Source of the DNA: Methanobacteriota archaeon
GTDB taxonomy: Archaea; Thermoplasmatota; Thermoplasmata; SG8-5; JACRNV01
Reading direction: 5' to 3'
DNA: 64,000 bases
Assembly (NCBI GenBank): GCA_016214785.1
Contig: JACRNV010000001.1
Location: 240 to 64,239, forward strand
Of this stretch, positions 146-64,000 are shown piece after piece (within the stretch, counting starts at the first letter, position 1; every line of letters begins with the position of its first letter). The translations under genes and the position numbers were made by a program. The notes below the pieces were generated by a model. The model ran no database searches, had not been told where the DNA came from, and saw only the letters and a list, made by a program, of their open reading frames with translations.

Positions 146-261
146 GTTTATCACCTTATTGTAGATACAAAATAGAACCACAAAGCGATATTAAGATCTG
201 ATTGAACCCATTTTTGATCTACAAACGAAAAGATCTAATCCCACACGGCCATCGGGATTCG

Positions 262-1026: not shown

Positions 1027-1161
1027 CCGCCACTTTCCCCCACCCCCGCGCAACCCTTATTATGCTCGACGCCGTTGAACGTGCCGAGATGGCAATCCAA
1101 GACATAATCAGGAATGGCGAACCCGCCAGACGCAGCGCGACCCCCGGGCATGGGGTGTGAG

Positions 1162-2520: not shown

Positions 2521-2537
2521 CTCGATCCCCCTCTTGA

Positions 2538-3041
2538 GCCTCGACTTGTGCTCCGAACTGGTTCTTCATGGAGTACGACAGGAAGGACTGGCTGGTGGAG
2601 AACGTCGTGCTGGTGCCCGCGCACTTCGTCACCCCCGAGATCGTGCAGAGGCGCAACCCGCTGAAGCCTACCGCCAGGAGAGCGGGATGGGTCGGTTCGA
2701 ACGTTCTCATTGGCAGATTGCCATTGGACGCAAGGATTCCGATTGTCCTCGACGACCAGGAAATCCCAAGGGCAGACGTAAGGAAGTCCTTTCAGCGCTT
2801 CGAGTTCCTGAAAAATAAATCCCTGGAATCGAAAGGTTGGCTTGCAGATGTCCTCGCTTGCGTCAGAGAACTTCCAAGGGAATTCTCCCTCAACGACATC
2901 TACGCCTTCGAGGGCAAGCTGGCTAAACTTCATCCCGGGAACCGGAACGTGAGGCCCAAGATCAGGCAGCAACTACAAATTTTGCGGGATAACGAGATAC
3001 TGGAGTTCGTATCGCCCGGCAGATATCGGATCAGGGCATGA
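2538..3041 (+). pseudogene. 5'-truncated second copy of the DpnI-like gene (last ~160 codons only)
   Basis: 2556-3038 aligns with 544-1026 at a constant offset of 2012 nt and includes a 113-nt perfectly identical block (847-959 = 2859-2971). The frame is open only from 2538, just after the stop of the upstream gene. There is no N-terminal catalytic half. An in-frame ATG at 2568 could still allow expression of a stand-alone C-terminal fragment. Confidence 0.7.
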
Positions 3042-3165
3042 CCGGGGATCCCATGGGCAGCGCTTAAATACGGACAATCACATGCATATCGCGGTGAGTA
3101 AGTCCCCCCGAAAGGATGACGGTTACGTAAGTGGCCTGTGACGAGTAAGGGAGGGATCGCCACTT

Positions 3166-31800: not shown

Positions 31801-31995
31801 GCCCATAAGAACGCGCGCGCCTCGTTCAAGCGCATAGGCGCGGAGCTCGCCGACGAGCGTCGACTTGCCTATGCCGGCTTCGCCGGAAACGATGATGGAC
31901 GAGCCCTTGCCGCCGACGGCGTCGTCCAGCATCTTCTTGAGGCTCTGGAGCTCCGATTCCCTGCCGACGAGCCTGGGCGCGGACACGATTTGCAT
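28876..31995 (-). CDS. AAA_16 (STAND-type) P-loop NTPase with C-terminal TPR array and a Roadblock/LC7-like insertion
   Basis: RLVGRESELQSL..GKGSSIIVSGEAGIGKSTL (Walker A), PLLLVLEDVHWADESS (Walker B), and about 600 aa of TPR-like helical repeats. Start placed at Met29 (31995); the alternative start is 32079. Confidence 0.8.
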   Translation of the reverse strand: MQIVSAPRLVGRESELQSLKKMLDDAVGGKGSSIIVSGEAGIGKSTLVGELRAYALERGARVLMGAAAADSGHPFLLISSAFAGHGGEALFDTGEHASFSKVFAIDPAGQLIAAVSPGSRDEGAGALAGMLSAVQGFVRDSFQGGSGKGSLGRLEYGDMKILIEHEERLFLAAVVKEAEHPEMRHALRLAAHDLESKFGAVIEKWNGRDGYLSPVKGALIPLLERRFAVRREHEGVSLEGERARIAEGAQKLVAGLARERPLLLVLEDVHWADESSLFVLGYVARNAAGLGALIVATRRPEEGRASIAGLGIAELRLGRLDTPAAAGIARSLFEPNDFPAEFLSRLSEQGGGNPFFIVETLRRMRDEGSISFKAGAYSLVREDCAIPDSVEAVVQARLSALEPDAMSMAEYASCLGREFDIDAALSNATLKSASRALAKLREAGIVLGDEGRGRFSHALFQDVVYRGISGRWKSAHHKSLGEYYEARHAGATDDVLYELARHFSRTSEHRKAFEYSFRSGEKAEGSFAAEQALELYKSALGFLPKAGAVPPGTESVLRERIGDCYKSLGEPPLAMAEYGALLAAHSSDPDGYIRIILKMDEIAFHLRDRKEVSRLLGLGSVMAPRAGPEAAAEFYSRQALDVHDTDPKEASELASLALEKLSAVSDRRTVAKVHITLGQVRDGLGGYADAVPLVIKAIEIAEGLGDARILASAYEQMGSMRHSHGEFASAIKMQEKALALRERMGDVFGMFSIYINLGNASADFNMPERATECHRSALAIGRRLGNDPMMAMALGNLGYALSMTGRNEEALATQSEALALRQGYDGKLGIGWSYSDLAIVHINLGNLGEAEDCALKSLGEWEPLGYDMGVSIAHLMLGNILSANGERDGAIEHYNMSLEIARRCDLIVEKFSSLAELVDLSAVPDVTEAFRELDALSAKIGRPDFQATVARLKACEALKSGDHARAHGILDSELALNAGQKGIEAELSRASLLRASARALAAQGEAGKGRATAAESAALFRKAGRLLEAGKSEELARTL

Positions 31996-32196
31996 ATAGG
32001 ATAGATAGATAATAAGCGTTTTCGCCAACTGACCACATTGCGGCCACCTCTTCTCAGTTCCCTTATCCCCTCTGACCACCCTGTAAGGTCATCGGAGGTG
32101 TCACAGTTGCTCGAATACGTGTACCTGGCAATGGAGGCGACGAGGGCGGTCAGGAAGAGCAAGAACGTCCCAGTCATCTAAAACCCTTACATGATT

Positions 32197-41956: not shown

Positions 41957-42060
41957 GTTCCATAACCGGGACGAGGTAGATAAGGATTTTCGATGAAAGG
42001 TGCACCAGGTATGAATAATTATTATATACGAGGGAGAAATTGCCCCAACTGGTGAATCAA

Positions 42061-46128: not shown

Positions 46129-46497
46129 ATGTCTAGCGTTGGGGATATCAAGAACGAGCTCAAAAAGCTCAGCACGGAGCACAAGATAGAGATTTCAGCG
46201 ATAGTCTCGCGCAGCGGCGTGCCAATCGCGTGGAACGTCCCCGACGAGTCGATGGTCGAGACATTCGCCACTCTGTCCGCGACCATAGTCGGCGCTGCCG
46301 AGGTCGTCTACACCGGATTGGGCAAGGCCCCCCCGAAAAGAATAATGATAGACTCGGACGGCGGGACGTTCATAGCGACCCCGATAGGGACGAAAGCGCT
46401 GCTCGTCGGCATAAGCAGCAACAGGGACCGGGCATCGCTCTCTTCCGGCCTGGACGCGGTGGCCAACGCCGTGAAGGGGGTGCTGAGCAGTGAATAG
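46129..46497 (+). CDS. Roadblock/LC7 (MglB-like) family protein
   Basis: 122 aa. IEISAIVSRSGVPIAWNVPDESMVETFATLSATIVGAAEVVYTGLG...RIMIDSDGGTFIATPIGTKALLVGISS fits the Robl_LC7 alpha-beta-alpha pattern. Confidence 0.7.
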   Translation: MSSVGDIKNELKKLSTEHKIEISAIVSRSGVPIAWNVPDESMVETFATLSATIVGAAEVVYTGLGKAPPKRIMIDSDGGTFIATPIGTKALLVGISSNRDRASLSSGLDAVANAVKGVLSSE

Positions 46498-48004
46498 CCT
46501 GGAGTACATCCCCGAGGAGGTCCGCGAGTTCTTTTCGAAGGAGGGGGGGCGCTCCCTGCTCGTCGGCGGCATGCCCGGCACTGGCAAGACCACGTTCGCC
46601 CTGCAGCTCCTCGAGGGCCTGACGGCGCCGGAGCGTGGCCTCTATCTCACTACCAGGGTGTCGGACGAGTCGCTCTACAAGCAGTTCCCGTGGCTCAAGG
46701 ACAAGGAGATGAAGGCCCGCATCGTCGATTCGAGCAGGATGCTCCTCGACGCGCTGACCCCGCCGGAGGAGGAGCAGAAGCCGGCCGACCCGAACAAGAC
46801 GCGCATCGTCGCCTCCAGCAAGGACTTCCTCCAGTCAATCGGCGACAAGGGCCTCTCGCCGCCGTCCAGGGTCGACAGGACCAGGCTGCGCATCCTGACC
46901 GAGCGCATGAGGATCCCGGAGGTGGAGCGCATCTACGACAGCATAGAGACAATCCTCCCGGAGAAGCCCACGCTGGTCATAGACAGCGTCGAGGGGATCA
47001 CCGGCAAGTACGGCGTCGACCAGGAGGATTTCATATTCACCCTGCAGAAGGACCTTGCCGAGCACTCGAACACGAACATCGTCTTCGTGACCGAGAAGTC
47101 GGAGCCAGACCCGGTCGAGTTCCTCGTAGACGGCGTCATACGCTTCAGGAACGAGGTGTTCGAGGACAAGCGCGTGCGCCACATGACGATAATGAAGCTC
47201 AGGGCGACGGAGATAAAGCAGCCGGCCTACCTCGTAACACTCAAGGACGGGCGGTTCCGCAGCTTCAGGCCGTTCGGCCCCGTCTACAAACCAGGGCGCT
47301 GGACGCCATTCCCGGACACGGACACGCACTACAGCACGGGAATTCCGGACCTAGACTCGCTCCTAGGCGGCGGGTACGCGAAGGGGAGCTACAACGTCAT
47401 CGAGGTCGACCTCAACGTTCCCGATGACGAATACCAGCTCGTGCTGCGCCCGATACTCCTCAACTTCCTCATGCACGAGCGCGGCATCGTCGCCGTCCTG
47501 AACGGCGGCTCGCACTCCCAGGCCATGAAGGAGGACCTGGCGAGGTTCATGCCCGAGGAGCAGTTCGACAGGCTCGTCAGGGTCGCGGACTACTTCATCA
47601 CCCAGACCAACCTCCCGTACGTCATGGCGCTCGGCCGGCGCGAGGAGGCCCTGCGCATATGGCGCGCGAACCAGGAGTTCCTGCGCGGGAAGGATAACAA
47701 GCCCATCATGGACTACACGGGCTTCGACACGCTCGAGTACCTGCAGGGCGGCGAGGTCGCCATCAAGGGGCTGCTCGAGGCCGTCTCGCACATCAAGATA
47801 TCCAACGATATAGGCGTGGGCGTCCTGAAGCCCGGCCTGAAGTCGGCGCAGGAGATAGTGAACATGGCCGACACGTACCTGAGGGTCACGGACATAGACC
47901 GCAGGCCCTGCATCTACGGGCTCAAGCCGAAGACCATCCTCTACGCGCTGGTGCCCGACGAAGAAAAGGGAATACCGCACGTCAAGCTCGAGCCTGTCGT
48001 TTGA
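46490..48004 (+). CDS. GvpD/KaiC-like two-domain RecA-superfamily ATPase (second domain has a degenerate P-loop)
   Basis: GTG start overlapping the Roadblock stop by 8 nt. Domain 1: LLVGGMPGTGKTTFALQLL (Walker A) and PTLVIDSVEG (Walker B). Domain 2: STGIPDLDSLLGGGYAKGSYNVIEVDLNVPDDEY, a KaiC-like entry motif without GKT. Confidence 0.7.
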   Translation: MNSLEYIPEEVREFFSKEGGRSLLVGGMPGTGKTTFALQLLEGLTAPERGLYLTTRVSDESLYKQFPWLKDKEMKARIVDSSRMLLDALTPPEEEQKPADPNKTRIVASSKDFLQSIGDKGLSPPSRVDRTRLRILTERMRIPEVERIYDSIETILPEKPTLVIDSVEGITGKYGVDQEDFIFTLQKDLAEHSNTNIVFVTEKSEPDPVEFLVDGVIRFRNEVFEDKRVRHMTIMKLRATEIKQPAYLVTLKDGRFRSFRPFGPVYKPGRWTPFPDTDTHYSTGIPDLDSLLGGGYAKGSYNVIEVDLNVPDDEYQLVLRPILLNFLMHERGIVAVLNGGSHSQAMKEDLARFMPEEQFDRLVRVADYFITQTNLPYVMALGRREEALRIWRANQEFLRGKDNKPIMDYTGFDTLEYLQGGEVAIKGLLEAVSHIKISNDIGVGVLKPGLKSAQEIVNMADTYLRVTDIDRRPCIYGLKPKTILYALVPDEEKGIPHVKLEPVV

Positions 48005-50474
48005 GCTCTTCGATATGTTCCTCGGCCAGCTTCGCCTCTCCGAGCGAGCCTATTGCCTTGTAATGGTCCAGGGCCATCATGAAGTTCTGCAGCGCGCACG
48101 CCGCGTCCCCCATGGCCTTGTAGGTGAGGCCGAGCTCGTAGTAGGACAGCGCAAGGTCGTACGGGATGTTCAGCATCTCCATGATGACGATGCCCTTGTT
48201 CAGGTTCTCGATGGACCTGTCCCACTCCTTCTTGAGCCTGTAGATGATGCCGAAGTTCTTGAAGACGCCGTTCATGCCTATCTTGTCGTCCGTCGATTCG
48301 CATATCTTGAGGCTGCGGGCGCAATACTCCTCGGCCCTTTCCAGCTCGCCCTTCATGGCCAGAGCCTCGGCCGCGTTGAAGAGCGACCAGGCTATGAAGT
48401 TCCTGTTCCCCAGCTTCTCGGAGGTTAGGCGGCACTTCTCGAACGCCTCGATTGCCTTGTCCCAGTTCCTCGTGTGCAGGTAAGAGTCGCCGAGGTTGTT
48501 GTAGGCGCGCATTATCTCGACGTGGTCGCCTATCTCATCGAGGTCCTTGATGCTCATGGTGTAGTATCCGACGGCCTTCTCCTGCTCGCTGCGCTGGTTG
48601 TAGACGTTGCCGAGGTCTATGTTCACGCGGGCGATGGCGTGCTTGTCCCCTATCTTGGTGGAGTGGGCGATGCTCTGGTTGTAGTGCTGGATGGCGTCGT
48701 CGACCTGGCCCCTGCGCCAGTGTATGTAGCCGAACCCCCTCTCGATGTCGGCGACGCCGGCGGTATCACCAGTCTGCTGGCATATGACCAGAGCCTCGGA
48801 ATAGAGCCTCTCCGAGTCGGAATACTCCGCGCGCTGCTTGTGCATGTCCGCGAGCTTGCGCAGCGACGCGGACATCATCTGCCTGTCCCCTTTCGACCTC
48901 GCGGCGTCGATGGCTTGGCGGAAGTGCGGCATTGCGGCATAGGGGTTGCCGAGGTCGTAGCACAGGTCGCCGCAGGCGATTGCCAGCCTGATGCTCTCGG
49001 CGGGCTTGTCGATCGCGCTGGACGGTTCGAGCTGCGACAGCAGCTTTAGGGCAGTGGCGTAGTAGTCGAGCGCTTCCTCCAGCGCCAGGAGCTTCTTCGC
49101 CTTGTCGCCGGCGGCGACGCTGTACTTGAAGGTCTTCGCCCCGTCCTTCCCGAGGTAGAAGTGCCTGGCCAGCGAGTAGACGACCTCCTCCAGCCTGCCG
49201 GTGTAGACGAGCTCCATGGCCTCGCCGACCTTCTTGTGCATGAGCCGCGCGCGCGACTTGCTCTGCCCCTCGTACATGCTGCTCGCGGTCTGCTTGTGGT
49301 CGAAGACATAAATCTCGTCCGAGGTCGACCTGTCCTCGCGGATGATTCCGACGGCCATGAGCTTGTCCAGGGAGTCCAGGAGGGTCTCGGAGTCCATCTC
49401 GGTGACCTTGTGGAGCACGTCGAAGTTGAACTGCGTGCCTATCACGGCCGCGTACATGAGGACCTTGCGGGTGTTGTCGTCCATGCGCGCTATCCTGCGG
49501 GCCGTGACGTCCTTGATGGTGCTCGGTATCCTGATCGTCGAGAGATCGACCCCGGCGTCCCAGACGTAGGAATCGGGCTTGATGACGCCCTCCTCTATGA
49601 GCGAGTGGAGCACCTCCTCGACGAAGAAAGGATTTCCCTCGCTCTCGTCGTAGAGCTTGCGCAGGAAGTGCTGGGGGATGTCCTCGATGCCGAGGATGGA
49701 CTTGACCAGCGCGCTCATGTCGTCGTTCCCGAGCCGCGCAAGGGTCATGGTCTCGTAGAGCCTCTCCTTGCTCATCTTCCTCTGCATATCGAGGAGCGGG
49801 TGCGAGCCGCCTGGGACGTCCCTTAGTTCCTCGGGCCTGTAGGCGCAGCATATCATCACGCGCGAGTTCCTAGTGTTCCTCGTGACATAGTGAAGGAGCT
49901 GCAGCGAGCCGGAGTCGGCCCACTGCAGGTCGTCTATGAAGAGCAAGACCGGCGACTCGTCCGCGATGCGGACGAGAATCTGGTTGAAGGTGTCGAACAT
50001 CCTGTCGCGCTCGGCCTGCACGCCCATGCCCGTTCCGGTGCGCTCGGCGAGCATCGATAGCCCGATGGGTATGCCGCCCTCGACGTTGTCCGGCGCCATG
50101 CGGCCGCCGCTGCGCGCCATCCCCGCGAGCCCGAGCGGAACGGAGCCGTAATCGAGCTCGTCGTCAACCTGCGACGCCGGCGGCCTGACGTAGCCCCTGA
50201 GCGCCTCGAAGAACGGCAGGTAAGGGTCGACGTCCTGCTGCGCGATGCACCTGCCAGTCAGGAACTTGAAACCCTTGGCGGAGGCGTGCCTGCCCGCCTC
50301 CGCGACGATGCGCGTCTTTCCGACGCCGGCCTCCCCCTCGACGAAAGTGAGACTGCCCTTGCCAGCGGCAGCGGCATCGACCCTCTCCTTGAGGAGCGCA
50401 AGCTCCTTGGTCCTGTCGATGAATTCCGCGGAGTGCTGAGCGGTCGTCTTTCCAATCCCCATCATGCAGATCAC
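47982..50474 (-). CDS. AAA_16 (STAND-type) P-loop NTPase with C-terminal TPR array
   Basis: FIDRTKELALLKERV..GKGSLTFVEGEAGVGKTRI (Walker A), PVLLFIDDLQWADSGS (Walker B), and a long TPR region. Its 3' end overlaps the convergent GvpD-like gene by 23 nt. Confidence 0.8.
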   Translation of the reverse strand: MICMMGIGKTTAQHSAEFIDRTKELALLKERVDAAAAGKGSLTFVEGEAGVGKTRIVAEAGRHASAKGFKFLTGRCIAQQDVDPYLPFFEALRGYVRPPASQVDDELDYGSVPLGLAGMARSGGRMAPDNVEGGIPIGLSMLAERTGTGMGVQAERDRMFDTFNQILVRIADESPVLLFIDDLQWADSGSLQLLHYVTRNTRNSRVMICCAYRPEELRDVPGGSHPLLDMQRKMSKERLYETMTLARLGNDDMSALVKSILGIEDIPQHFLRKLYDESEGNPFFVEEVLHSLIEEGVIKPDSYVWDAGVDLSTIRIPSTIKDVTARRIARMDDNTRKVLMYAAVIGTQFNFDVLHKVTEMDSETLLDSLDKLMAVGIIREDRSTSDEIYVFDHKQTASSMYEGQSKSRARLMHKKVGEAMELVYTGRLEEVVYSLARHFYLGKDGAKTFKYSVAAGDKAKKLLALEEALDYYATALKLLSQLEPSSAIDKPAESIRLAIACGDLCYDLGNPYAAMPHFRQAIDAARSKGDRQMMSASLRKLADMHKQRAEYSDSERLYSEALVICQQTGDTAGVADIERGFGYIHWRRGQVDDAIQHYNQSIAHSTKIGDKHAIARVNIDLGNVYNQRSEQEKAVGYYTMSIKDLDEIGDHVEIMRAYNNLGDSYLHTRNWDKAIEAFEKCRLTSEKLGNRNFIAWSLFNAAEALAMKGELERAEEYCARSLKICESTDDKIGMNGVFKNFGIIYRLKKEWDRSIENLNKGIVIMEMLNIPYDLALSYYELGLTYKAMGDAACALQNFMMALDHYKAIGSLGEAKLAEEHIEELKRQARA

Positions 50475-53044: not shown

Positions 53045-53183
53045 ACCGGTAAGCTGCACGTTTTGCTCCCAGTTCTTGTCCCGTATCACTTTATGTACAA
53101 TTTCGCGCGCGCGTTCGACCACAACTCTTTTATTCATAGTTCGCAGTGAGGTGGACAGCAGCATCTTGAGCGGAGGGGGTCAA

Positions 53184-56100
53184 ATGACCAAAATCACTGG
53201 TAGCGTAGGGGCTAGTGTGGGAACGATAATGGCGGCTGTTCTGGCGCTCGTATTTCTGTGCTCGGCGCTGAGCCCAGCCGTGTCTGCGAAATCTGCGGCA
53301 GCGCCGGCGGCGATTGCTGCTGATGATAAGACCGGCCAAGCGACCACGGGTCCGGTTGGCCCGATGGCGCCTGAAAAGCAGGCGGACAGCGCCCAGCGCG
53401 TCGAATGGGCGCCAAAGGTGACGGAACAAAGGGATGCTATAAAACGGGATTTTGGAGAACCGGCTCCCACTATAGAATCGAAGATCAAGGCAAACGGGAT
53501 TGAGGCAGCTCCTGCTCTCTCGCAGCCAGCGGCCGCGCCCAGCGAACAAGCGAGCAAGCCATCGCTCTCTTCTCCTCCTGCCATCAATCAGGTTCAGCCC
53601 CGGTTGCGAGAACAGAGGGAAACCCCGACTCATGTACCTAACATCGTGGCATCCTCGCAGCCGAGCGATGGCATGACGGCCGCTCGCTCAACCCTTGCCG
53701 CCGGAAATCCCGGAAGGACCCCCGCCCGGGAGATACCACAGCCTACAGTCAATGCGAAGACGAATGTCATAATCGTGTGCGCAGACGATTACCCAGCCAC
53801 TCTGATATCCCAGTTGCAGGGCCATGGCAACATAGGAACTGTCGATTTCTGGAATGCGGCATCCACCACTCCAACCGCGGCGGATTTATTGCCCTACGAC
53901 GTCGCAATCACTTTCTCAAATTCTCCATACTCTAATCCTGTGGCCATTGGCAACGTCTTTGCAGACTATATCGATGGAGGCGGGAGCTTAGTAGCGGCTA
54001 CTTTTTGCTTGTACGATGCAGGTAGTAATTTTGGGATAAGCGGTCGGATAGTTAGCGATGGATACCTGCCTTTCATCTCAAACGATACAGGCAATTACTA
54101 TTCCTGGAGCACGCTAGGAACCTATAACGCAAGCCACCCGTTGATGGGCGGCGTGAGCGCAGTCACAGATTACTACCGCGATTACGTTTCTTTAGATCCA
54201 TCCGCGGAATTTGTCGCTTCATGGGCAGACGGGGCCGGGTTTGTGGCAGTCAAAGGAAATGTGGTAGGGATCAATTCGTATCCCGGCCCATATTACGATG
54301 CTACTGGTGACATTTGGAATTTGTTCTGCAATGCAGTCCTATACTTGAATCCCCAGACATATAGACTCACTTTGATGCCCGGCGTCGTTAACAAGATAGC
54401 TAAAACAGGACAGGTGTTCAACATCTCAATGGCATTGCAGAACACGGGGCTCAACAATGACACATACGACTTATCCTTCGCCAACGACACATGGCCTGTA
54501 TCATTCTTGGACGCAACAGGGACGACCCCGATAGCGTCGATAGGTCCAGTGGGTAGCTTTGGCTGGGAATATTTCACGGTCAGGGTTACGGTGCCAGGGA
54601 CGGCCGTGACTGGCGATTTTGACGAGTTCGAAGTCAATGCGACCTCCCAGAATGATACTGCGATTTCTGAGATATCTCTAGTCAACGTAACTTGCTTCAA
54701 TGGCATTGCCGTAGGCATCTACGACCACCCGGACGTGAGCGACATCTCATATTGGACCGACGGAAACGGGAACTCCTGGGCCGATTACCAGGGTGTCGTC
54801 GATAGCGACCTGCAAGGCAGGTTCATGAGCTTCATCATTACCGAACTTAGCCCGTGGACGCTTGAGCTTCTAGACGTCATCGTCCTTCCAGACAATGCAA
54901 TACCCGATGCGGACCTGGCAGCCGTTAACGCGTGGTTCTTGCCGGGCAAGGGCATCATCGCCGTCGACAGCGCGGCCTGCTTCGCGACCTATTCGGGCTA
55001 CATGTTCCCGGCTGGCGCAGGCACCAATGGCAATGGCGTATACTGGGATTACAACACAAATGAGAACGACCAGTGTATCTTGATGCCCCATAAGATTACA
55101 GAGTCCTATGAGATCAACGACATTTACAGCTCTATGGGAGGAGACGCCCAATATTACAACTCGATGCTTCCTTTGGACGCACTGGCGCTCACCACCCAGA
55201 AATGGAACAGCGAGTATGTTTATGCGGTCGCGAGGGAAGTCCCCGGTGCGGGAAGGATAGTGGGCTTGGGCCCATATGACTCTCACCCAGACGGGACCGA
55301 TGAATTGATAAGGGACGCGATAGAATGGTCGGCGAGCCTGGGCTATTACAGCGTCGTCGCCCAGCCTGGGAACCAGGAAGGGTACGGTTCCGGCGGCGAG
55401 ACCGTGGACTTCACGGTGACGGTCCTGAACACGGGGACAAGCGCCGATACATACGACCTTACGGCGACGGGTTCCGTCTGGACCGCCGAGATATACGACG
55501 CGACCGGAACGACCGTGATATCGTCCATAGGGCCAATATCGGCGGGCGCGTCGGCGGATTTCATCGTCAGGGTGTCGATTCCCGGCGGGTCGTCAATGGG
55601 CGCCTTCGACGAGGCGAGCATCCACATCGAATCGCAGAGCCAGCCATCCGCAAACGACACAGCAACGGTCAGAACACAGGTGCCTTATGTTGGCGAATGG
55701 TTCGACGGCCTCGAGTCGGGGATGGCCGATTGGACGGTGGACGACATCAGCCACGTCGTGCCCTCGACCACGTGGGAGACGGGAGACCCGACGGGATATC
55801 CACCTATCTCTCCGTATGATGGGACAAGCTGCGCTGGGACTAACCTGCTCGATTACTATTACATTGGAGCGGACACCGTCCTCGAATCACCTTATTTAAC
55901 TCTCGAGGCGGGCGGTGTGTTGCTGTCTGAGGAGTTCGGTTCAGGAACTATGCCTCCTGCTGGGTGGTCACACATACCGAACAATGCTTATACATGGTTT
56001 ATCGAAACTAATACGCCACATTCGGCCCCATATTATGCAGATTGCCAGTACGACCCTGCACTCAATACCCAAGACGAGTGGCTGATATCGCCTCCGCTTG

Positions 56101-59100
56101 ACCTCACAGGGTGCACGGGAACGGAACTTAGGTTCTGGTGGTACATGAGCTACTATTGGGGCGTCAACCCGTATGACAATTACGACCTCAATGTGTATGT
56201 GAGCACGAACGATTGGGCGACCTCGACCTTCATGTGGAACGAGGACGGCCTCTCATTCTCGAATTGGGTTTGGTACGACACCGACATGGGACTGCCGCTC
56301 GACCTGTCGGCCTTTGACGGTATGAGCAACGTGGAGATAGGATTCCAGTACTCGGGTGCGGACGGCGCGGAGCTGGCTCTCGATGACATTACAGTAACAA
56401 CGACGGCAGGCAGCTGCAACATGTCCTTCTTCCAGTGGTATGACATCGATACGAACGACGGCGGTTTCGTTGAAATCTCCGTCGACAACGGGCCATGGAC
56501 CCAAATCGATCCGGTCGCGGGATACCCGGTTACTGGCAACGCTGGCGGGTACGTGACCAATTGCTACGCAGGCGCAAGCGGCGCATGGTATTACGAGGTT
56601 TACGATGTGTCGTCGTATGTTGGCTCCACCGTGAGATTCGGCTTCCACTTCGCGAGCGAGACCATGAACAGCAACTGGGGATGGTACATCGACGATGCGT
56701 TCGTCGGAGGCACACCATATTCCATGGACGCCACTCCACCTCTGCAGGCCGGGTTTGGCGACCCGGGCGACTCTGTATTCTACACAGTCGATGTGAGCAA
56801 TACTGGGTATATCTTCGATACGTACGACCTCAGCGTGGTTGTGAACACGACCGAAGTCTGGTTCTACGACCTGGGGATGAGCCCGATCACGTCGATAGGC
56901 TCCATATCCGCAGGCAGTTCGGCCTCGTTCATCGTAGAAATCGTGATACCCGGCGCGAACGCGCCTGGGGCTTGGGACGGCGCAGTTATTCAGGCCACTT
57001 CGCAGAACGACTTGAATGTGTTCGACCAATGTGAGATAATCACGCAAACCCTGGCGCAGTTCCTCCTGGTCGACGACGACGGCGGCCTTATCACTGAAAT
57101 GTGGTACGACCAGGCTTTCGTCGACAATGGCTGGGCATACGACTACTGGAACACGGGCTTCATGGGCGTCCCATCGGCTTCGGTTCTCGCGCTGTTCGAC
57201 GCCGTCGTTTGGGGCACCGGGGACAATAGTGGCGGCTATGTCGGCGGCCAGCCATTTGACACTCTGTCGGTGGATGAGATGAATGAAATCACTACGTTCC
57301 TCGACAATGGTGGCAGGATGTACCTGTCAAGCGCCGGGTGCGGCGCAGACGCCTTCTTCAACGGATGGGATGGATGGCTCGGCGCTTATTTCGGCGCTTT
57401 CCCATACAATCTTGATGTGGGCACAAGTTATGAGCTAATCGGGGAGCCATACGATCTCATCGGCGACGGCCTCGACTACTTCATGCACCAAGGTGACGCG
57501 GATCCCGAAGTCCAGGGAATCCTCGGGATGAACGCGCCCTTCGGCGCCCCCACATCCACAGCATGGATAATGTCGGACATGGGGGATTTCGCAGCAATCA
57601 AGACTCCTACTTTCACATACAGAACTGTCCTAAGTGGCTACGAGTTCGCGGACATCGACGGGCAAGCCAACAGGGCCATGACGCTCAGCAGGATCATCAA
57701 CTGGCTGCTATTGCCCGACTATGTATTGGCCGCACCGAGCTACCAGGAGTACGCGGCGGGGGCGGATACGACGGTCATCTACCCCATGACGATTACCAAT
57801 CTCGGCATGCTCGATGACACATTTGACCTGAGCATCGCCCCCGCTCCTCTGTGGACAACCGAAATAAGGGACGAGACCGGCACCATTGTCATAACCGACA
57901 GCGGGTTCGTGCCTGGGGGAAGTATGTTCAACTTCACCATTGCCGTGCAGATTCCGATTGGCGCTGTGCCTTCGTACAGCAGCCAGGCCACACTGAACGT
58001 CTCCTCTCAAAACCAGCCTGGCGTTTACGCGCTCGCAGACGTTTGGACTTACTGCTACGTGACGCCCCCGACGACCGACGATTTCGAGGGCGGTACCTTC
58101 GACAGCATGAGGGCCATGACATTCGGCAATATAACGACGCAATGGGAGCAGGGCGACCCGTCGAGCTTCCCGTCTGGCCCGGGCAGCGCGTATTCTGGCG
58201 CGAACTGCTGGGGCACGAACCTGCTCGCCAATTACACGCCAGGCACTGATTCCTGTCTCTACACGCATTACTACAACCTGAGCCTGGCGCAGAGCGCTAA
58301 CATGACGTTCTGGCAATGGTACAGCATGGACCCGAACGATGGCGGATGGGTTGAAATCAGCACAGACTTCACGCAGACATGGACACAAATCCGTCCAGTG
58401 GGCGGATATGGCGGCACGAACTGGTACGGCATCGAAAGTTACCTCGGCACAAGCGGAGGCTGGCAGCAGGGCTTGTTCAACCTCTCGGATTACGTGGGCA
58501 AGGTCGTAATACTGAGGTTCAAGTTTGCCTCGACCCCGATGACCCCTATCACGTTTGCGGGATGGTACATTGACGATGTGTCTGTCGATGCAATCTTACC
58601 GACCCGGGGCGTGTTGGTCTCGCCGGCCTCGGCGATGCAGATATGCGTGCCGGGCGCGAATGCCGATTACCAGCTGACGGTCAAGAACATCGGGACAAGC
58701 GGCGACGACACATTCGACCTGACGGCCGCGAGCTCGAATGGATGGCCGGCGGGCACATATGACCTCGGGATGAACCCAATCAGCAGCCTCGGTCCGCTGG
58801 CATATGGCGCGTCGGAGAACATCATCGTCAGGCTGACGGTGCCGCTTGTTTCGTCACCCGGGCAGTCGGACGATACACTTGTAACGGCCACTTCGCAGAA
58901 TGACTCGGCGGCGAACGACACTGCGCTGCTGACGTCACAGGTCCTGGCGCCGATACTGCTGGTGGACGACGACCTCGGGATAATGTCGCAATCCTGGTAC
59001 GAGTCGGCGCTGACGGATTCCGGCTTCGCTTTCAACAAGTGGGACGTCAGCGTGTTCGGAGCCCCGGCGCTCGGCGACCTGGCGCAGTACGATGGCGTGG

Positions 59101-62100
59101 TCTGGCTGACCGGCAACGCCTACGGTTTCAACGGCAACAGCCTAACGTTCGATGACAGGGTGGCACTGGGCCAGTACATGGCGGCTGGCGGTAACGTTTA
59201 CCTTTCCGGCTCCATGGTCCCCATGGAAGCCCACGACTACGGATGGGAAGGGTGGCTTAGCAACTACTTCGGGGCCGCTGCGGTGAACGCGTCCATGGGC
59301 TCGCAGGGGTGGGGGTGGGAGATGTTCGGCACGGTCCCGCAATCCATCGAGGGCGTGGCCGGCGACCCGATAGGGGACGGCATGACGCTTGCGCCGCACA
59401 TGGGAGATTACTGCCCCGCGCTATGGGGAACGTACACTATCATGCAGACAGCGTCCCCGATGGCCAGCTACTCGTTCAACTTCAATCCCGGCCTGCCCGG
59501 AGGGACGGAAGGGGCCATGATCAGAATGGACAGCGGCATTCACAGGGCCGTGTACTCGTCCTTCGACTTTGCCGAGGTCAACAACAACTTGGCAAGGGCG
59601 GGCCTGATGTACGAAATCCTCAGATGGATGCTTTCCAGAAAGCCTGTCGTGGAGAATGCGTTGCTCGATGGCGCCCCCTTCGAATCCGTGTACCCTGGTG
59701 CCATGGTCACGCTCACGGCGGTCGTGAACACGACGATGACCGGCGGTTACAACGTCGCTGGCGCGAACTGCACCTTCGGTCCCTTGGCTTGGCCTGGAGC
59801 GCCGATGGCTGCCCAGGACGGGTCGTTCGACTCGCCGGTCGAGACGGCGACGCTGACAATCGATACGACCGCAGCCGCGGACGGCATCTACTATCTCTAC
59901 GTCTACGGCTGGGACGAAGTGCCCAACTACAACGACACGTCGCAGGCCTACGCGATCCTGCTTGTCGATTCGACGCCGCCCGACAGCAACGTCGTGCAGA
60001 CTGGGTCGTACTGGCGCAGCGCGAACCCCGACGCGGTCACGATATCGGCGACGGACAACCTGTACGTACCCGTACTGGAGGAGAACTTCGACGGCGGCGC
60101 CTTCCCGCCCGCCGGATGGAGCACGGCTGGAATATGCAGTGCGTATACTATTTTGCCGATGCTGACCCACTACTGGGCGCAGTACGACGACGCGGTCATC
60201 GGAGTGCCGATTTCATACTCTCCGCCTGATTGCGCTGGGGTTTGGTGGAGCGACGGGAGTGGCGGCGACCCGCCGGCAGGCGATCAGAACGAATGGCTGA
60301 TATCGCCGAGCATCGATGCGTCTGGTTTGACTAACATGCAACTCACCTTCTGGTCGGTCTACACGATGATGAGGTACGGGGCGGCAGACGGCGCCCACGA
60401 TTACGTGCGGGTCTCGGTGGACAATGGTTCGAGCTGGACCATAGTCGCGGACCTGGCGCATGACGCGGCCTTCGACTTCGACGGGTGCTCGGGAGGATGG
60501 ATCGGCAACTCGAGTTGGAACTATTATGACTTCCCCATCTCCATAGACCTGAGTTCCTATGCCGGCAACCCGAACGTGCTGGTGGCATGGAACTACGTCT
60601 ATGATTCCGCGTCGCCTGGAGGCCGGGGAATCTGGATGGTCGACGACGTATCGATACAGATGTCGGGCGTCGCAAGCGTCGATTTGTGGTACAGGTACAG
60701 CGCGGACAATGCGACGTTCGGGCCTTGGTCTCTCTTCGGCACTTCGACGTTGCCGCCGTTTGACTTCGCGTTCGATTGGCCTGATGGCCAAGGGTATTAC
60801 GAGTTCTACTCCGTCGCCACCGATCTCGCTGGAAACACCGAGGCAGCGCCCGCAGGGGCCGACGCGATATACGCATACGAGACGACGGTCCCCTCGAGCA
60901 ACGTCGTTCAGAACGCCGGCTACTTAAACTACGGCGCCGGTTTGACCATCGACGGCACCGCCAGCGACTCTCCGAGCGGCGTGGATTTCGTCCAGCTATG
61001 GTCTCGCGTCTCGAACGACAATTCCACATGGTCTCCCTGGAGCCTCGCGATGGCCGATTACCTAGCGCCGTACCAGTGGGACTTCGTGGCGCCCCAGGAC
61101 GGGTACTACGAGTTCTACAGCCGCGCCATGGACTTCGCAGGCAACTACGAGGCGGCGCCCGGCGCGGCGGACGCTGCGGGAGCGTTCGATATTTCTCCCC
61201 CGACGAGCAATGCCGTGCAGGGCCCTCAGTATGCATGGAACACTGGACCGATGACTGTTCAGGCTGCCGCCGATGACATGTACGTATTCCTCAACGAAAA
61301 GTTCGAGGGCACGTTCCCGCCCGCGGGCTGGAGCGTCGACACACTGGCCGGCCTGGGATGGGAGCGGAACGACTGGTGGGGTGACGGCAACTACGTGACC
61401 GGAGGTGGCGACTACTGCGCCGACGTAAACAGCGACGCGTACGGTACTTCCCTAGAGTCTGTGCTCTACACGCCAACGCTAACCTTTGGCGGTCTGCCAC
61501 CGAGCACTCCCTTGTACCTGGAATACGATGCAAATTTCCAGTGTTACATCACTGATGATCAGGGATGGACAGAAATAAGCATCGATGGAGGAACGAGCTG
61601 GACGACCCTCCTCTACTGGAACGAGGACCATCCCCCGGGAGGCACGTACGTGGCTCCTGGAGTGCACGTGAGCATCGACATCTCCGCGTACGCGGGCGAG
61701 CCCAGCGTCCAGTTCAGGTTCTATTACTATGCACCGGACTGGGACTGGTACTGGCAGCTCGACAACGTCGTCATCCAAGTGCCGCAGAGCGTCGCACAGG
61801 TGGAGCTGTTGTACAGGTCCTCCCTAGACAACGCCACTTGGGGCGCATGGACGTCCTTCGGCAACGACAGCGCCGCCCCGTATTCGTGGGACTTCAGCTG
61901 GCCCGACGGGGACGGATTCTACGAGTTATACACTATCGCGACCGACAACATGGGCTGGGCGGAATTGCCACCGTTGATGGCAGACGCATCCTATTTGTAC
62001 GATACCACAGCTCCAACGATCGCCTCGACCCTCCCGGCTGACGGGAATCCGAGCTGGAGCATCGCCGCTGGAACATACTCTATCCAGTTCAGCGAGCTAA

Positions 62101-64000
62101 TGAACGTCCTTGCCGGCGCGCCCCCGAACACGAATCTGCCTATCACAGGATGGGCTTGGGACGGGGCCGGGATGTGGCTCAACGGGACGTACACTGCACT
62201 CGCGGTCAGCACGCTTTACTGGGTCGACTTGGCGGGGCTCGGATACACCGATGCAATTGGAAACGCCCTCGGTGGCGACACGAACAAGTCCTTCACGACG
62301 GCCGCAGGTCCGTGGGCCGCAGTCACGAGCCCCTCGGGGCCGAGCGTCGATACAATGCCCACGATACTGTACGATTTCGGGTCCAGCCCGACCAGCGTCG
62401 AGATATACAACACGTCGGACGGAGGCGCCACGTGGACCCTGTGGGGCACTGACGCAACGGTTGACGGCACATGGACTCCCGGATCGAGCTTGTCCATCGA
62501 TGGCCCGTATTACTGGAGCGCGAGGGCGTTGGACGGCGCGAACGACGAACCGGTCCCGTCCAGCCCGGTCGACATCGAGCACGGGCCTTACATCCTGGAC
62601 ACGACATCGCCGTCGAGCTCCGTCGACCCAGTGGCGCCATTCTGGGGTAATACCATACCGACCACATTCTTCGCCACAGCCTCGGATGGCCTAACCAGTG
62701 TCGCCTATGTCGAATTCTGGTACGCCTATTCAGCAGACAACATAACCTGGGGTGGCTTAACGATGTTCGACAACGATACCGCCGCACCGTGGTCAGCGCC
62801 CTTCACTTTCCCAGACGGCGAAGGCTATTACGCCTTCGTATCCCGCGCAGGCGACATATTGGGGAACTATGAGGGATTGCCCGGCACTTTGGACGCGGAA
62901 TGCGGGTACGACATAACAACCCCTAACAGCGATGCAATCTATGCGGCGCCTTACGTGAAGACCTTGCCGACCGAGACAATCGACGCGAACGCGAACGACG
63001 CGCTCAGTGGCGTCGCCTCGGTCGAGTTGTGGTACAGGTTCTCGGCCGACAATGCGACGTGGGGCTCCTGGACGATGTTCGGAACAGATACGGCAGCCCC
63101 CTGGCAATGGGACTTCGACTGGCCGATGGGCGTGGGCTACTACCAGTTTTACACGGTGGCACATGACATTGCCTCCAACGCCGAGGCGCCGCCAGCGCTT
63201 CCCGACGCCGAGTACCAGTGGTTCCCGCCATTCCCGGTAAGCGTCGTGGAGAGGACTGCGGCATATTGGCACAACACCAATCCCGCGATGATCACTGCCA
63301 ACGTGACTGTAACCGCCAACCCGGTTGATTACGTCGAGCTATGGTACAGGTTCAGCTCAAACAACGCGACCTGGGGCTCATGGGCATATGGCTTGAACGA
63401 CACGGACGGCGCCCCCTGGCAATGGAGCTTCGGCTGGCCCGATGGCGAGGGATATTACGAGTTCTACAGCAGGGCGGCAGACACGACGGGAAACTACGAG
63501 CCCGCTCCGACATCCGCAGATGCGCAATATGCATGCGACGCGACGGTTCCAGCGAGCTCGGTCAATGCCGCAGGCGCATACTGGCGTACATCTCAGCCTC
63601 ACACGCTGACCGCGAGCGCGAGCGACGGCCTTTCCAGCGTGTCGTACGTTGAGCTCTGGTACAGGTATTCCGCAAACAACGCGACATGGGGCGCCTGGGC
63701 GCTGTTCGGCAACGACACACTCGTTCCATGGTTATGGGTATTCACATGCCCCGATGGCGACGGGTTCTACGAGTTCGCGTCGGCAGCCGGTGACATCGTA
63801 GGCAACTACGAGGGCGCGCCATCCGCGGCGGATGCCGCATACGGATACGACACGGCTGGGCCAACGAGCTCTTGCGACGTGACCGGGCCGTACTGGTACT
63901 CCTCGATGCCTATATCCATATCGATAACTGCGACCGATGGAACCAGCGGCGTCAACAGGGTGCAGCTATGGGGCAGGTTCAGCGCGGACAACGCGACCTG
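53184..64000 (+). CDS. Second giant secreted multidomain protein, 5' part only (>3,605 aa; ORF open at the window end)
   Basis: Not in the ORF track because there is no stop. I translated 53184-64000 by hand and found no stop codon. GGAGGGGG lies 4 nt upstream of the ATG. Signal peptide MTKITGSVGASVGTIMAAVLALVFLCSALSPAVSA, then an Ala/Pro-rich linker, then repeated recognisable modules (see findings). Confidence 0.85.
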   Translation, partial: MTKITGSVGASVGTIMAAVLALVFLCSALSPAVSAKSAAAPAAIAADDKTGQATTGPVGPMAPEKQADSAQRVEWAPKVTEQRDAIKRDFGEPAPTIESKIKANGIEAAPALSQPAAAPSEQASKPSLSSPPAINQVQPRLREQRETPTHVPNIVASSQPSDGMTAARSTLAAGNPGRTPAREIPQPTVNAKTNVIIVCADDYPATLISQLQGHGNIGTVDFWNAASTTPTAADLLPYDVAITFSNSPYSNPVAIGNVFADYIDGGGSLVAATFCLYDAGSNFGISGRIVSDGYLPFISNDTGNYYSWSTLGTYNASHPLMGGVSAVTDYYRDYVSLDPSAEFVASWADGAGFVAVKGNVVGINSYPGPYYDATGDIWNLFCNAVLYLNPQTYRLTLMPGVVNKIAKTGQVFNISMALQNTGLNNDTYDLSFANDTWPVSFLDATGTTPIASIGPVGSFGWEYFTVRVTVPGTAVTGDFDEFEVNATSQNDTAISEISLVNVTCFNGIAVGIYDHPDVSDISYWTDGNGNSWADYQGVVDSDLQGRFMSFIITELSPWTLELLDVIVLPDNAIPDADLAAVNAWFLPGKGIIAVDSAACFATYSGYMFPAGAGTNGNGVYWDYNTNENDQCILMPHKITESYEINDIYSSMGGDAQYYNSMLPLDALALTTQKWNSEYVYAVAREVPGAGRIVGLGPYDSHPDGTDELIRDAIEWSASLGYYSVVAQPGNQEGYGSGGETVDFTVTVLNTGTSADTYDLTATGSVWTAEIYDATGTTVISSIGPISAGASADFIVRVSIPGGSSMGAFDEASIHIESQSQPSANDTATVRTQVPYVGEWFDGLESGMADWTVDDISHVVPSTTWETGDPTGYPPISPYDGTSCAGTNLLDYYYIGADTVLESPYLTLEAGGVLLSEEFGSGTMPPAGWSHIPNNAYTWFIETNTPHSAPYYADCQYDPALNTQDEWLISPPLDLTGCTGTELRFWWYMSYYWGVNPYDNYDLNVYVSTNDWATSTFMWNEDGLSFSNWVWYDTDMGLPLDLSAFDGMSNVEIGFQYSGADGAELALDDITVTTTAGSCNMSFFQWYDIDTNDGGFVEISVDNGPWTQIDPVAGYPVTGNAGGYVTNCYAGASGAWYYEVYDVSSYVGSTVRFGFHFASETMNSNWGWYIDDAFVGGTPYSMDATPPLQAGFGDPGDSVFYTVDVSNTGYIFDTYDLSVVVNTTEVWFYDLGMSPITSIGSISAGSSASFIVEIVIPGANAPGAWDGAVIQATSQNDLNVFDQCEIITQTLAQFLLVDDDGGLITEMWYDQAFVDNGWAYDYWNTGFMGVPSASVLALFDAVVWGTGDNSGGYVGGQPFDTLSVDEMNEITTFLDNGGRMYLSSAGCGADAFFNGWDGWLGAYFGAFPYNLDVGTSYELIGEPYDLIGDGLDYFMHQGDADPEVQGILGMNAPFGAPTSTAWIMSDMGDFAAIKTPTFTYRTVLSGYEFADIDGQANRAMTLSRIINWLLLPDYVLAAPSYQEYAAGADTTVIYPMTITNLGMLDDTFDLSIAPAPLWTTEIRDETGTIVITDSGFVPGGSMFNFTIAVQIPIGAVPSYSSQATLNVSSQNQPGVYALADVWTYCYVTPPTTDDFEGGTFDSMRAMTFGNITTQWEQGDPSSFPSGPGSAYSGANCWGTNLLANYTPGTDSCLYTHYYNLSLAQSANMTFWQWYSMDPNDGGWVEISTDFTQTWTQIRPVGGYGGTNWYGIESYLGTSGGWQQGLFNLSDYVGKVVILRFKFASTPMTPITFAGWYIDDVSVDAILPTRGVLVSPASAMQICVPGANADYQLTVKNIGTSGDDTFDLTAASSNGWPAGTYDLGMNPISSLGPLAYGASENIIVRLTVPLVSSPGQSDDTLVTATSQNDSAANDTALLTSQVLAPILLVDDDLGIMSQSWYESALTDSGFAFNKWDVSVFGAPALGDLAQYDGVVWLTGNAYGFNGNSLTFDDRVALGQYMAAGGNVYLSGSMVPMEAHDYGWEGWLSNYFGAAAVNASMGSQGWGWEMFGTVPQSIEGVAGDPIGDGMTLAPHMGDYCPALWGTYTIMQTASPMASYSFNFNPGLPGGTEGAMIRMDSGIHRAVYSSFDFAEVNNNLARAGLMYEILRWMLSRKPVVENALLDGAPFESVYPGAMVTLTAVVNTTMTGGYNVAGANCTFGPLAWPGAPMAAQDGSFDSPVETATLTIDTTAAADGIYYLYVYGWDEVPNYNDTSQAYAILLVDSTPPDSNVVQTGSYWRSANPDAVTISATDNLYVPVLEENFDGGAFPPAGWSTAGICSAYTILPMLTHYWAQYDDAVIGVPISYSPPDCAGVWWSDGSGGDPPAGDQNEWLISPSIDASGLTNMQLTFWSVYTMMRYGAADGAHDYVRVSVDNGSSWTIVADLAHDAAFDFDGCSGGWIGNSSWNYYDFPISIDLSSYAGNPNVLVAWNYVYDSASPGGRGIWMVDDVSIQMSGVASVDLWYRYSADNATFGPWSLFGTSTLPPFDFAFDWPDGQGYYEFYSVATDLAGNTEAAPAGADAIYAYETTVPSSNVVQNAGYLNYGAGLTIDGTASDSPSGVDFVQLWSRVSNDNSTWSPWSLAMADYLAPYQWDFVAPQDGYYEFYSRAMDFAGNYEAAPGAADAAGAFDISPPTSNAVQGPQYAWNTGPMTVQAAADDMYVFLNEKFEGTFPPAGWSVDTLAGLGWERNDWWGDGNYVTGGGDYCADVNSDAYGTSLESVLYTPTLTFGGLPPSTPLYLEYDANFQCYITDDQGWTEISIDGGTSWTTLLYWNEDHPPGGTYVAPGVHVSIDISAYAGEPSVQFRFYYYAPDWDWYWQLDNVVIQVPQSVAQVELLYRSSLDNATWGAWTSFGNDSAAPYSWDFSWPDGDGFYELYTIATDNMGWAELPPLMADASYLYDTTAPTIASTLPADGNPSWSIAAGTYSIQFSELMNVLAGAPPNTNLPITGWAWDGAGMWLNGTYTALAVSTLYWVDLAGLGYTDAIGNALGGDTNKSFTTAAGPWAAVTSPSGPSVDTMPTILYDFGSSPTSVEIYNTSDGGATWTLWGTDATVDGTWTPGSSLSIDGPYYWSARALDGANDEPVPSSPVDIEHGPYILDTTSPSSSVDPVAPFWGNTIPTTFFATASDGLTSVAYVEFWYAYSADNITWGGLTMFDNDTAAPWSAPFTFPDGEGYYAFVSRAGDILGNYEGLPGTLDAECGYDITTPNSDAIYAAPYVKTLPTETIDANANDALSGVASVELWYRFSADNATWGSWTMFGTDTAAPWQWDFDWPMGVGYYQFYTVAHDIASNAEAPPALPDAEYQWFPPFPVSVVERTAAYWHNTNPAMITANVTVTANPVDYVELWYRFSSNNATWGSWAYGLNDTDGAPWQWSFGWPDGEGYYEFYSRAADTTGNYEPAPTSADAQYACDATVPASSVNAAGAYWRTSQPHTLTASASDGLSSVSYVELWYRYSANNATWGAWALFGNDTLVPWLWVFTCPDGDGFYEFASAAGDIVGNYEGAPSAADAAYGYDTAGPTSSCDVTGPYWYSSMPISISITATDGTSGVNRVQLWGRFSADNAT
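59970..64000 (+). repeat. Eight copies of a 104/105-aa beta module (V(E/D)LWYR(Y/F)S.(D/N)NATWG.W..FG.D...PW.W.F.WPDG.GYYEFYS.A.D..GNYE..P), the last five tandem
   Basis: VxLW landmarks lie at 60678, 60990, 61800, 62709, 63021, 63333, 63648 and 63960, with spacings of 312/315 nt except where other domains are inserted. The array continues beyond the window. Confidence 0.8.

Follow-up and report, generated by a model that had tools for sequence, protein, structure and literature searches.

Adhesins of the Gram-positive MSCRAMM type, like those of the SiiE or Bap type, consist of a signal peptide, a distal ligand-binding region, a long array of immunoglobulin (Ig)-like domains and a C-terminal anchor. 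The gene that starts at the ATG at position 53184 of the archaeal DNA analysed here (64,000 nucleotides, hereafter the window) encodes a protein with the same layout and with adjacent repeats at moderate identity; the likeness concerns layout alone. The differences lie in the anchor, which would be an archaeal transmembrane (TM) helix rather than an LPXTG motif or a type I secretion system retention module, and in the head, which is made of class I glutamine amidotransferase (GATase1)-like, CARDB-like and MAM-like domains. In our view, the whole of the evidence is best explained if the product is a giant, exported, acidic, probably N-glycosylated, membrane-anchored cell-surface adhesin of a Thermoplasmata-like archaeon, and we hold this to be probable. 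Giant Ig-repeat surface proteins are already a known kind, and complete orthologues of this one have been deposited, though they are unstudied. According to surveys, archaea do have proteins of such size, though rarely, and most of them are uncharacterised (bioRxiv 10.1101/2023.11.21.568195; PMC11573180). Mildly unusual are the four extracellular GATase1-like domains, belonging to two unmodelled families, the insertion of MAM domains into other domains and a contig break induced by repeats.

The original prediction was that a giant open reading frame (ORF), overlooked by the ORF track, runs from this ATG to the window edge. Re-translation of frame 53184+3n confirmed it, yielding 3,605 sense codons and no stop up to position 63998; the closest in-frame stop 5' of the ATG is at position 53019. 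The frame is missing from the ORF list because the listing tool drops ORFs that run off the window end. The motif said to lie 4 nt ahead of the ATG is the Shine-Dalgarno-like GGAGGGGG at 53172-53179. It lies within a 139-nt, AT-richer intergenic leader on the 3' side of an AMP phosphorylase gene, for which we infer a promoter role; a sigma-70 promoter scan gave no match, as expected for an archaeon. GC content in the giant frame is 0.53, 0.50 and 0.72 at codon positions 1, 2 and 3 (GC1, GC2 and GC3), and GC3 is 0.625 in the first 3 kb and 0.755 in the last 3 kb of the gene. In the minus-strand and off-frame ORFs that overlap the giant frame, which had been set aside as artefacts, GC content peaks at codon position 1 or 2, never 3, and a Pfam scan of them returned nothing above the gathering threshold; these signs mark them as shadow ORFs in GC-rich coding sequence. 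Homology to database proteins extends through head and stalk and takes in every type of module, with the exception of the signal peptide and the linker; the giant frame is therefore far beyond what chance would produce in sequence of 61% GC.

The layout of the predicted protein is given in Table 1. Its hydrophobic N-terminus, alignable with that of an orthologue (P0169, see below), reads MTKITGSVGASVGTIMAAVLALVFLCSALSPAVSA followed by KS; it thus ends in AVSA before the Lys, in agreement with the signal peptide originally proposed. The Ala/Pro-rich linker was also described correctly, residues 36-190 being 19% Ala and 14% Pro. The head that follows, of about 2,200 residues, contains four GATase1-like domains (types A and D), five CARDB/DUF11-like sandwiches (B modules) and MAM-like jelly rolls. 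The B modules resemble DUF11, CARDB and NEW3-type sandwiches by homology and by weak Pfam matches. Domain D2 closes the second copy of a MAM-B-D super-repeat of ~630 residues, whose copies (residues 1073-1510 and 1700-2150) are 35-40% identical, with B4 (1513-1628) between them. Above threshold, Pfam recognises just the Big_5 domain of the stalk and InhA-like_MAM (PF20773), which matches two stretches and totals 53.1 bits for the protein (cut-off 26.9); MAM (PF00629) scores 19.6-24.5 bits, below its cut-off of 26.4. Separate scans of the A, D, X and R segments gave no Pfam match above threshold.

The stalk is built from R modules of ~104 residues and is interrupted by one Big_5 domain. A direct Pfam scan of the R module gave Big_13 at E = 0.008 and an OmpL47-type match of 27.7 bits against a cut-off of 40. 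In homologues of the module the precomputed Pfam assignments are Big_7 and Big_13 (PF17957, PF19077), and the module is widespread in 'Ig-like domain repeat' proteins of Thermoplasmata and Thermoplasmatales. As had been noted, the array is still repeating at position 64000: its period is 312-315 nt and the last module core begins at 63948. The whole product is very acidic, with an isoelectric point (pI) of 4.05, and contains 42 N-x-S/T sequons, compared with 29.3 +/- 4.9 in shuffled sequences. One sequon, D-N-x-T-W, occupies a fixed place in most R modules of the giant protein and its close orthologues.

Table 1. Layout of the giant gene and its leader (window coordinates; residues numbered from ATG 53184).
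Feature	Residues	Coordinates	Strand	Evidence or remark
Intergenic leader		53045..53183	+	TATA-like AT-rich stretches 53090-53103 and 53128-53138; GGAGGGGG 53172-53179
Signal peptide, Sec/signal peptidase I type	1-35	53184..53288	+	Predicted cleavage after VSA; homologous to P0169 N-terminus
Ala/Pro-rich low-complexity linker	36-185	53289..53738	+	Composition
A1 GATase1-like alpha/beta domain	186-392	53739..54359	+	AlphaFold2 model, Foldseek; no Pfam match
B1 CARDB/DUF11-like beta-sandwich	393-504	54360..54695	+	Internal repeats; homology to TIGR01451/DUF11-type repeat proteins
A2 divergent GATase1-like domain	505-721	54696..55346	+	A alignment; 54% identity to P0001
B2 CARDB/DUF11-like sandwich	722-835	55347..55688	+	Weak Pfam DUF11, FixG_C, fn3_5; internal repeats
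InhA-like MAM jelly roll with nested MAM (913-1072)	841-908 and 1073-1175	55689..56717	+	Pfam MAM, InhA-like_MAM; internal BLAST
B3 CARDB/DUF11-like sandwich	1179-1287	56718..57044	+	Internal repeats
D1 GATase1-like domain, 'LLVDDD...GDPIGDG' type	1288-1512	57045..57719	+	D alignment; hhalign to A profile
B4 CARDB/DUF11-like sandwich	1513-1628	57720..58067	+	Internal repeats
Uninterrupted InhA-like MAM	1629-1806	58068..58601	+	Pfam PF20773, best stretch 1698-1802
B5 CARDB/DUF11-like sandwich	1807-1917	58602..58934	+	Internal repeats
D2 GATase1-like domain	1918-2152	58935..59639	+	Internal repeats, D alignment, hhalign; weak ThuA hint
Unassigned X region, ~110 residues	2153-2261	59640..59966	+	No Pfam match; conserved in orthologues (covered by P0155, P0169, P0153)
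R module split by MAM/'cleaved-adhesin'-like insert (~2297-2490)	2262-2293 and 2493-2566	59967..60881	+	Splicing (z = 14-23), AlphaFold2, Foldseek
Intact Ig-like R module	2567-2671	60882..61196	+	Internal repeats, homology
Second split R module, MAM-like insert (~2700-2855)		61197..62006	+	Internal repeats, in-silico splicing
Big_5 bacterial Ig-like domain	2942-3039	62007..62300	+	Pfam PF13205, 23.8 bits vs cut-off 23.6
Stalk array: one variant and at least five R modules of ~104 residues, cut by window edge		62301..64000	+	Period 312-315 nt

An exhaustive HMMER search retrieved 4,177 representatives at E <= 1e-3, of which 259 reach E <= 1e-30; among the 150 best representatives, 48 are at least 2,000 residues long. 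This search overturned the absence of orthologues suggested by a k-mer-indexed search of 5.8 billion proteins, which had been queried with three segments and had found proteins of up to ~1,200 residues with at most 69% segment coverage. Complete orthologues, from Thermoplasmata metagenome-assembled genomes, are P0155 (4,489 residues; NCBI/Logan) and P0169 (4,940 residues; JGI Ga0598260_0000002, 'uncharacterized membrane protein'). Each aligns in one high-scoring segment pair of ~2,650 residues over residues 1232-3857 of the giant protein, at 46-47% identity. Their module types match those of the giant protein, down to both nested MAM domains, Big_5 and the R array, and the signal peptide of P0169 is homologous to that of the giant protein. 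Their heads differ, since A1 is present and B1 and A2 are missing, whereas the giant protein has all three. Beyond the known end of the latter, P0155 continues for 679 and P0169 for 889 residues, a C-terminal stretch made of R modules, Big_5, a CarboxypepD_reg-like domain, a TM helix and a Lys/Arg-rich and then acidic tail. Ribosomal-protein, RNA polymerase and RFC genes adjoin the P0169 gene, and no dedicated secretion system was found near it. Relatives of the modules are labelled Thermoplasmata or Thermoplasmatales, as is P0156, a further giant of this sort (UCE37914.1, 'Ig-like domain-containing protein [Thermoplasmata archaeon]'). As judged from these alignments, the giant protein belongs to a family of uncharacterised giants already in public databases.

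Several other relatives of 2,000-2,900 residues (P0159, P0178, P0186, P0191, P0212, P0217, P0219 and P0258) have an A- or A2-type GATase1-like domain. Some such relatives end in a short motif like '(I/Y)(Y/F)LP(L/V)V(x)R', which may be an unrecognised sorting signal, and others end in tails like those of the type IX secretion system (T9SS). Two metagenomic R-module proteins, of 5,447 residues (L012 1622-17962) and 2,358 residues (L013 2671-9744), have no TM-helix ending; they close with a long Q/G/N-rich low-complexity tail and a final KGKK or KGKGK.

The window itself covers the first ~80% of one gene. The protein P0148, found in the HMMER search, is 100% identical to residues 398-3605, extends 252 residues further and ends mid-module; the gene therefore has at least 3,857 codons (11.57 kb), more than the 10.8 kb that had been predicted as a minimum. 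The Logan contig SRR12113407_9587 matches window positions 41500-63044 (21.5 kb) with 0 mismatches, and the gene call on it, of 3,760 residues, is still open. P0148 adds three module cores to the stalk array, the last of them cut by its end, and in this part (P0148 residues 3209-3460) the R modules switch subtype ('SGLYNVTLYYAYSADNxTWPALNxYTMF...'). Because the repeat copies inside the window are only 60-85% identical in DNA, at a period of 312-315 nt, collapse or misjoining there is unlikely; Tandem Repeats Finder detected no array among them. Just beyond it, the final two modules known so far share 93% identity in the protein sequence of their cores, compared with 21-56% for all earlier adjacent pairs, and no such modules are seen at the same position in P0155 and P0169; in length-variable 'periscope'-type stalks, tandem repeats are nearly identical in DNA. 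The NCBI contig with the proteins of the window is 64,993 bp long, the Logan contig ends at window-equivalent 64,463 and P0148 at 64,754; all three assemblies stop within ~1 kb of this module pair. A run of near-identical repeats of ~324 nt probably starts past the window and breaks every short-read assembly. Exact 50-mers from the final bases of the window had no match in genome or metagenome contig collections. Since P0155 and P0169 continue as described above, and the secreted proteins of the window end likewise, we predict a full length of ~4,500-4,750 residues and a TM anchor. The term 'secreted' in the original prediction thus holds for export; the protein is better described as exported and probably anchored through a C-terminal TM helix.

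The AlphaFold2 model of A1, built from a 10-sequence alignment, has a predicted local distance difference test score (pLDDT) of 91 and a predicted template modelling score of 0.90. Foldseek returned 40 PDB matches to it at E <= 1e-3, nearly all of them GATase1 enzymes or GATase1-like proteins; the top matches, the uncharacterised proteins 2gk3, 3soz and 3rht, have query-based template modelling scores (TMq) of 0.65-0.73 and E ~1e-7. On this model, the A domain has the class I glutamine amidotransferase fold. In the same 10 sequences only columns G102 and A156 are invariant. Where A1 has a Cys at the elbow, its homologues have S, N, Y or V; the position of the nucleophile thus lacks conservation, and the domain is probably non-catalytic. 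The Cys-His-Glu triad of class I glutamine amidotransferases was not found in the A alignment, and no Cys or His is invariant in the D alignment. D aligns with the A profile in hhalign at 95% probability (E = 2.5e-8) and is a remote homologue of A; it is marked by the motifs LLVDDD and GDPIGDG, which form an invariant acidic cluster, DDD...GDPxxDG. PDB sequences searched with profiles of the A and D domains yielded no significant match.

The A domain shares its fold with non-catalytic GATase1-like proteins, namely STM3548 (2gk3), STM1381 (3soz) and a Planctomyces protein (3rht). The domains of the giant protein differ from these in being extracellular, present in four copies and devoid of a conserved Cys nucleophile and of a Pfam model that matches at threshold; matches to Pfam ThuA, DUF4159 and DUF4350 are sporadic and sub-threshold. 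MAM and D modules are also found, at 25-40% identity, in T9SS cargo proteins of WOR-3, Zixibacteria, Calditrichia and Krumholzibacteria. Those bacterial proteins, of 500-900 residues, end in a T9SS C-terminal sorting domain and often include a fused C1A or S8 peptidase.

Three MAM domains sit inside other domains. Two R modules carry MAM-like inserts of ~190 and ~155 residues in the loop between '...TISATDN' and 'SGVASV...'. Once these inserts are cut out in silico, the R halves align end to end with intact modules, with 42-55 identities over ~102 positions and z = 12-23 against shuffles. In the third case, the first InhA-like MAM is itself split by a MAM domain (residues 841-908 and 1073-1175), as is apparent from internal BLAST against the intact copy at residues 1632-1805. 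The nesting is conserved in orthologues. In Foldseek searches the nested domain matched the Kgp cleaved-adhesin domains K1-K3 best, followed by reelin, the Eph ligand-binding domain, InhA2 and the meprin MAM domain, and its fold match to meprin and LAST-MAM domains supports a MAM fold. Against the Porphyromonas gingivalis Kgp/HagA cleaved-adhesin structures (4itc, 3km5, 3m1h) and the meprin and InhA2 MAM domains, E values are 3.5e-7 to 5e-6 and target-based template modelling scores ~0.62-0.72. The nested domain differs from all of these in having no attached protease, in an identity of 16-20% and in being inserted in an Ig-like module.

These properties suggest how the protein could work. It would be exported through the Sec pathway, its signal peptide cleaved after VSA, and would be N-glycosylated, to judge from the sequon excess and the fixed sequon of the R modules. 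A TM helix beyond the contig end would retain it at the cell, and the array of Ig-like R modules, followed by Big_5 and CarboxypepD_reg, would form a membrane-proximal stalk from which the head of GATase1-like, CARDB-like and MAM/cleaved-adhesin-like modules projects. By binding an external ligand (a glycan, a protein, a particle or another cell), the head would act as an adhesin. By analogy, adhesion to a polymer, a particle or another cell is the most likely role. The Pfam matches of the giant protein include no catalytic domain of an enzyme family, and no HExxH motif occurs in its 3,857 residues. An identity as an M6 metallopeptidase (Immune inhibitor A) was considered and rejected: InhA-like MAM is present, with no Peptidase_M6 match and no HExxH.

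Several points weigh against a membrane-anchored adhesin of this design. The C-terminus lies beyond every assembly and the anchor is deduced solely by homology, while adhesion is argued by analogy with jelly-roll and Ig-repeat adhesins. Among the extracellular GATase1-like domains, the DDD...GDPxxDG cluster of the D type could form a metal or catalytic site. The AlphaFold2 model of residues 2262-2580 is moderate (pLDDT 74), with the N-terminal half-module poorly placed; because of this, the case for nesting relies on the splicing test and on conservation in orthologues. Finally, GC3 of the gene (0.72) is below that of housekeeping genes (0.85-0.89), which disfavours very high expression and hence a main role in an envelope lattice.

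The alternative that survives best, although we think it unlikely, is that the protein is a non-catalytic scaffold or substrate-capture arm, which binds a polymer and presents substrate to separately encoded peptidases. The peptidase associations of its modules speak for this: bacterial D-domain homologues occur in T9SS cargo beside C1A and S8 peptidase domains, InhA-like MAM domains are typical of M6 peptidases, and some relatives are auto-annotated 'bacillopeptidase F (M6 family)'. Peptidase genes also lie at hand, an S8 peptidase with Big_5 being encoded ~4 kb from P0169 and an M32 carboxypeptidase within the window. However, the M32 enzyme is probably cytoplasmic, the neighbourhood is not conserved, with relatives lacking the giant gene at the matching position, and a peptidase domain is found neither in the known residues nor among the P0169 Pfam matches on record.

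One could also envision a structural part of the envelope or glycocalyx, such as an S-layer-associated fibre or a protective, halomucin-like coat, rather than a ligand-specific adhesin. Extreme acidity, many sequons, great length, repetitive Ig-like modules and membrane anchoring would all suit such a part, as would the presence of several proteins of this kind within 64 kb. We nevertheless judge it quite improbable. The head varies between orthologues (A1 is common, B1 and A2 are not), a pattern more typical of ligand-facing adhesins; GC3 is below the housekeeping level; and the protein has neither an S-layer or mucin-like Ser/Thr-rich bulk nor similarity to the other giant protein of the window. 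No S-layer domain was matched in Pfam or NCBIfam. An assembly chimera, a pseudogene or a chance fusion in GC-rich DNA, where long spurious ORFs do arise, is effectively refuted even for a gene incomplete in every assembly, given the independent Logan contig, the GC3 periodicity in the right frame, the divergence of the DNA repeats and homology over all module types, including 2,650 residues colinear with complete orthologues of 4.5-4.9 thousand residues.

A C-terminal anchor would agree with the other surface proteins of the window. All three complete secreted proteins of the window (giant ORF 1, a NosD/PKD protein and a CARDB protein) end in a TM helix and a basic tail. The four exported window proteins have pI 4.0-4.8 and less than ~2% Lys; cytoplasmic neighbours have pI 6-10, which rules out halophily as the source of the acidity and makes it a surface-protein trait. 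Giant ORF 1 (5866-28815) encodes 7,649 residues with DUF11, DUF7619, Big_1 and Big_2 domains and has 161 sequons where 89 are expected. Two giant surface genes within 64 kb had been called notable; both are there, but the emphasis is tempered by the commonness of such proteins in the lineage and by their lack of kinship, BLAST having found no similarity between the two. The NosD/beta-helix and PKD surface protein (42040-45018) has two to three R-module copies (residues 530-805, 36-47% identical), and its gene lies in the region of lowest GC in the window (0.50; GC3 0.66).

The remaining neighbours are archaeal: a ribose-1,5-bisphosphate isomerase (IF-2B family) paired with the AMP phosphorylase, TtuA, a GvpD/KaiC-like ATPase, a Roadblock/LC7 protein, the M32 carboxypeptidase and two AAA_16-TPR genes. 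The nearest AMP phosphorylase (70% identity) belongs to a metagenome-assembled genome (MAG) labelled 'Methanobacteriota archaeon' (L002), and the second-nearest (49%) to Candidatus Methanofrustulum fimipullorum, which we take to be a member of the Methanomassiliicoccales. The source is an uncultured Thermoplasmata-like archaeon. Conserved synteny was looked for and discarded: L002 keeps the upstream genes and has no giant gene downstream, and a sequence like the giant gene is absent from all ten related loci examined. The AAA_16 and TPR (MalT/STAND-like) paralogues (28876-32079 and 47982-50474, both on the minus strand) each adjoin surface-protein genes, and the second is kept in synteny in L002. 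At 46129-48004, the Roadblock/LC7 gene (a call made on the Logan contig) runs into the start of the gene for the GvpD/KaiC-like ATPase; the overlap hints at a small regulatory pair. At the far end of the window, a full (202-1026) and an N-truncated (2568-3041) DpnI-like gene flank a gene with Schlafen/AlbA_2, HATPase_c_4 and winged helix-turn-helix domains (1114-2520), and a DUF3800-X RNA (Rfam RF02984, 55 bits) follows at 3092-3162. This region (202-3162), with its lower GC (0.56-0.57) and basic proteins, is a possible islet of defence or mobile genes.

Sediments and waters harbour uncultured Thermoplasmata in abundance, and detrital polymers are thought to sustain them; little is known of the ways in which they make contact with substrates or partners. 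It is tempting to speculate, although we find it rather doubtful as a whole, that P0155, P0169 and the giant protein represent a conserved, undescribed organelle of Thermoplasmata for attachment between cells or between cells and particles, with new GATase1-like modules, a rigid head and a variable stalk. In such an organelle, the four GATase1-like domains may be new ligand- or metal-binding, even catalytic, modules, the domain-in-domain MAM insertions may give a rigid multivalent head, and the near-identical terminal Ig modules may give strain-level variation in stalk length. The gene itself is of a type expected for the lineage and comes as no surprise. The coincidence of the contig break with near-identical repeats implies that it is systematically truncated in short-read MAGs. 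What the module map offers are targets for study: two extracellular GATase1-like families without a Pfam model, nested jelly rolls and a sequon-bearing Ig module, in a member of a conserved family of anchored proteins of 4-5 thousand residues that are labelled only 'uncharacterized membrane protein' or 'Ig-like domain-containing protein'.

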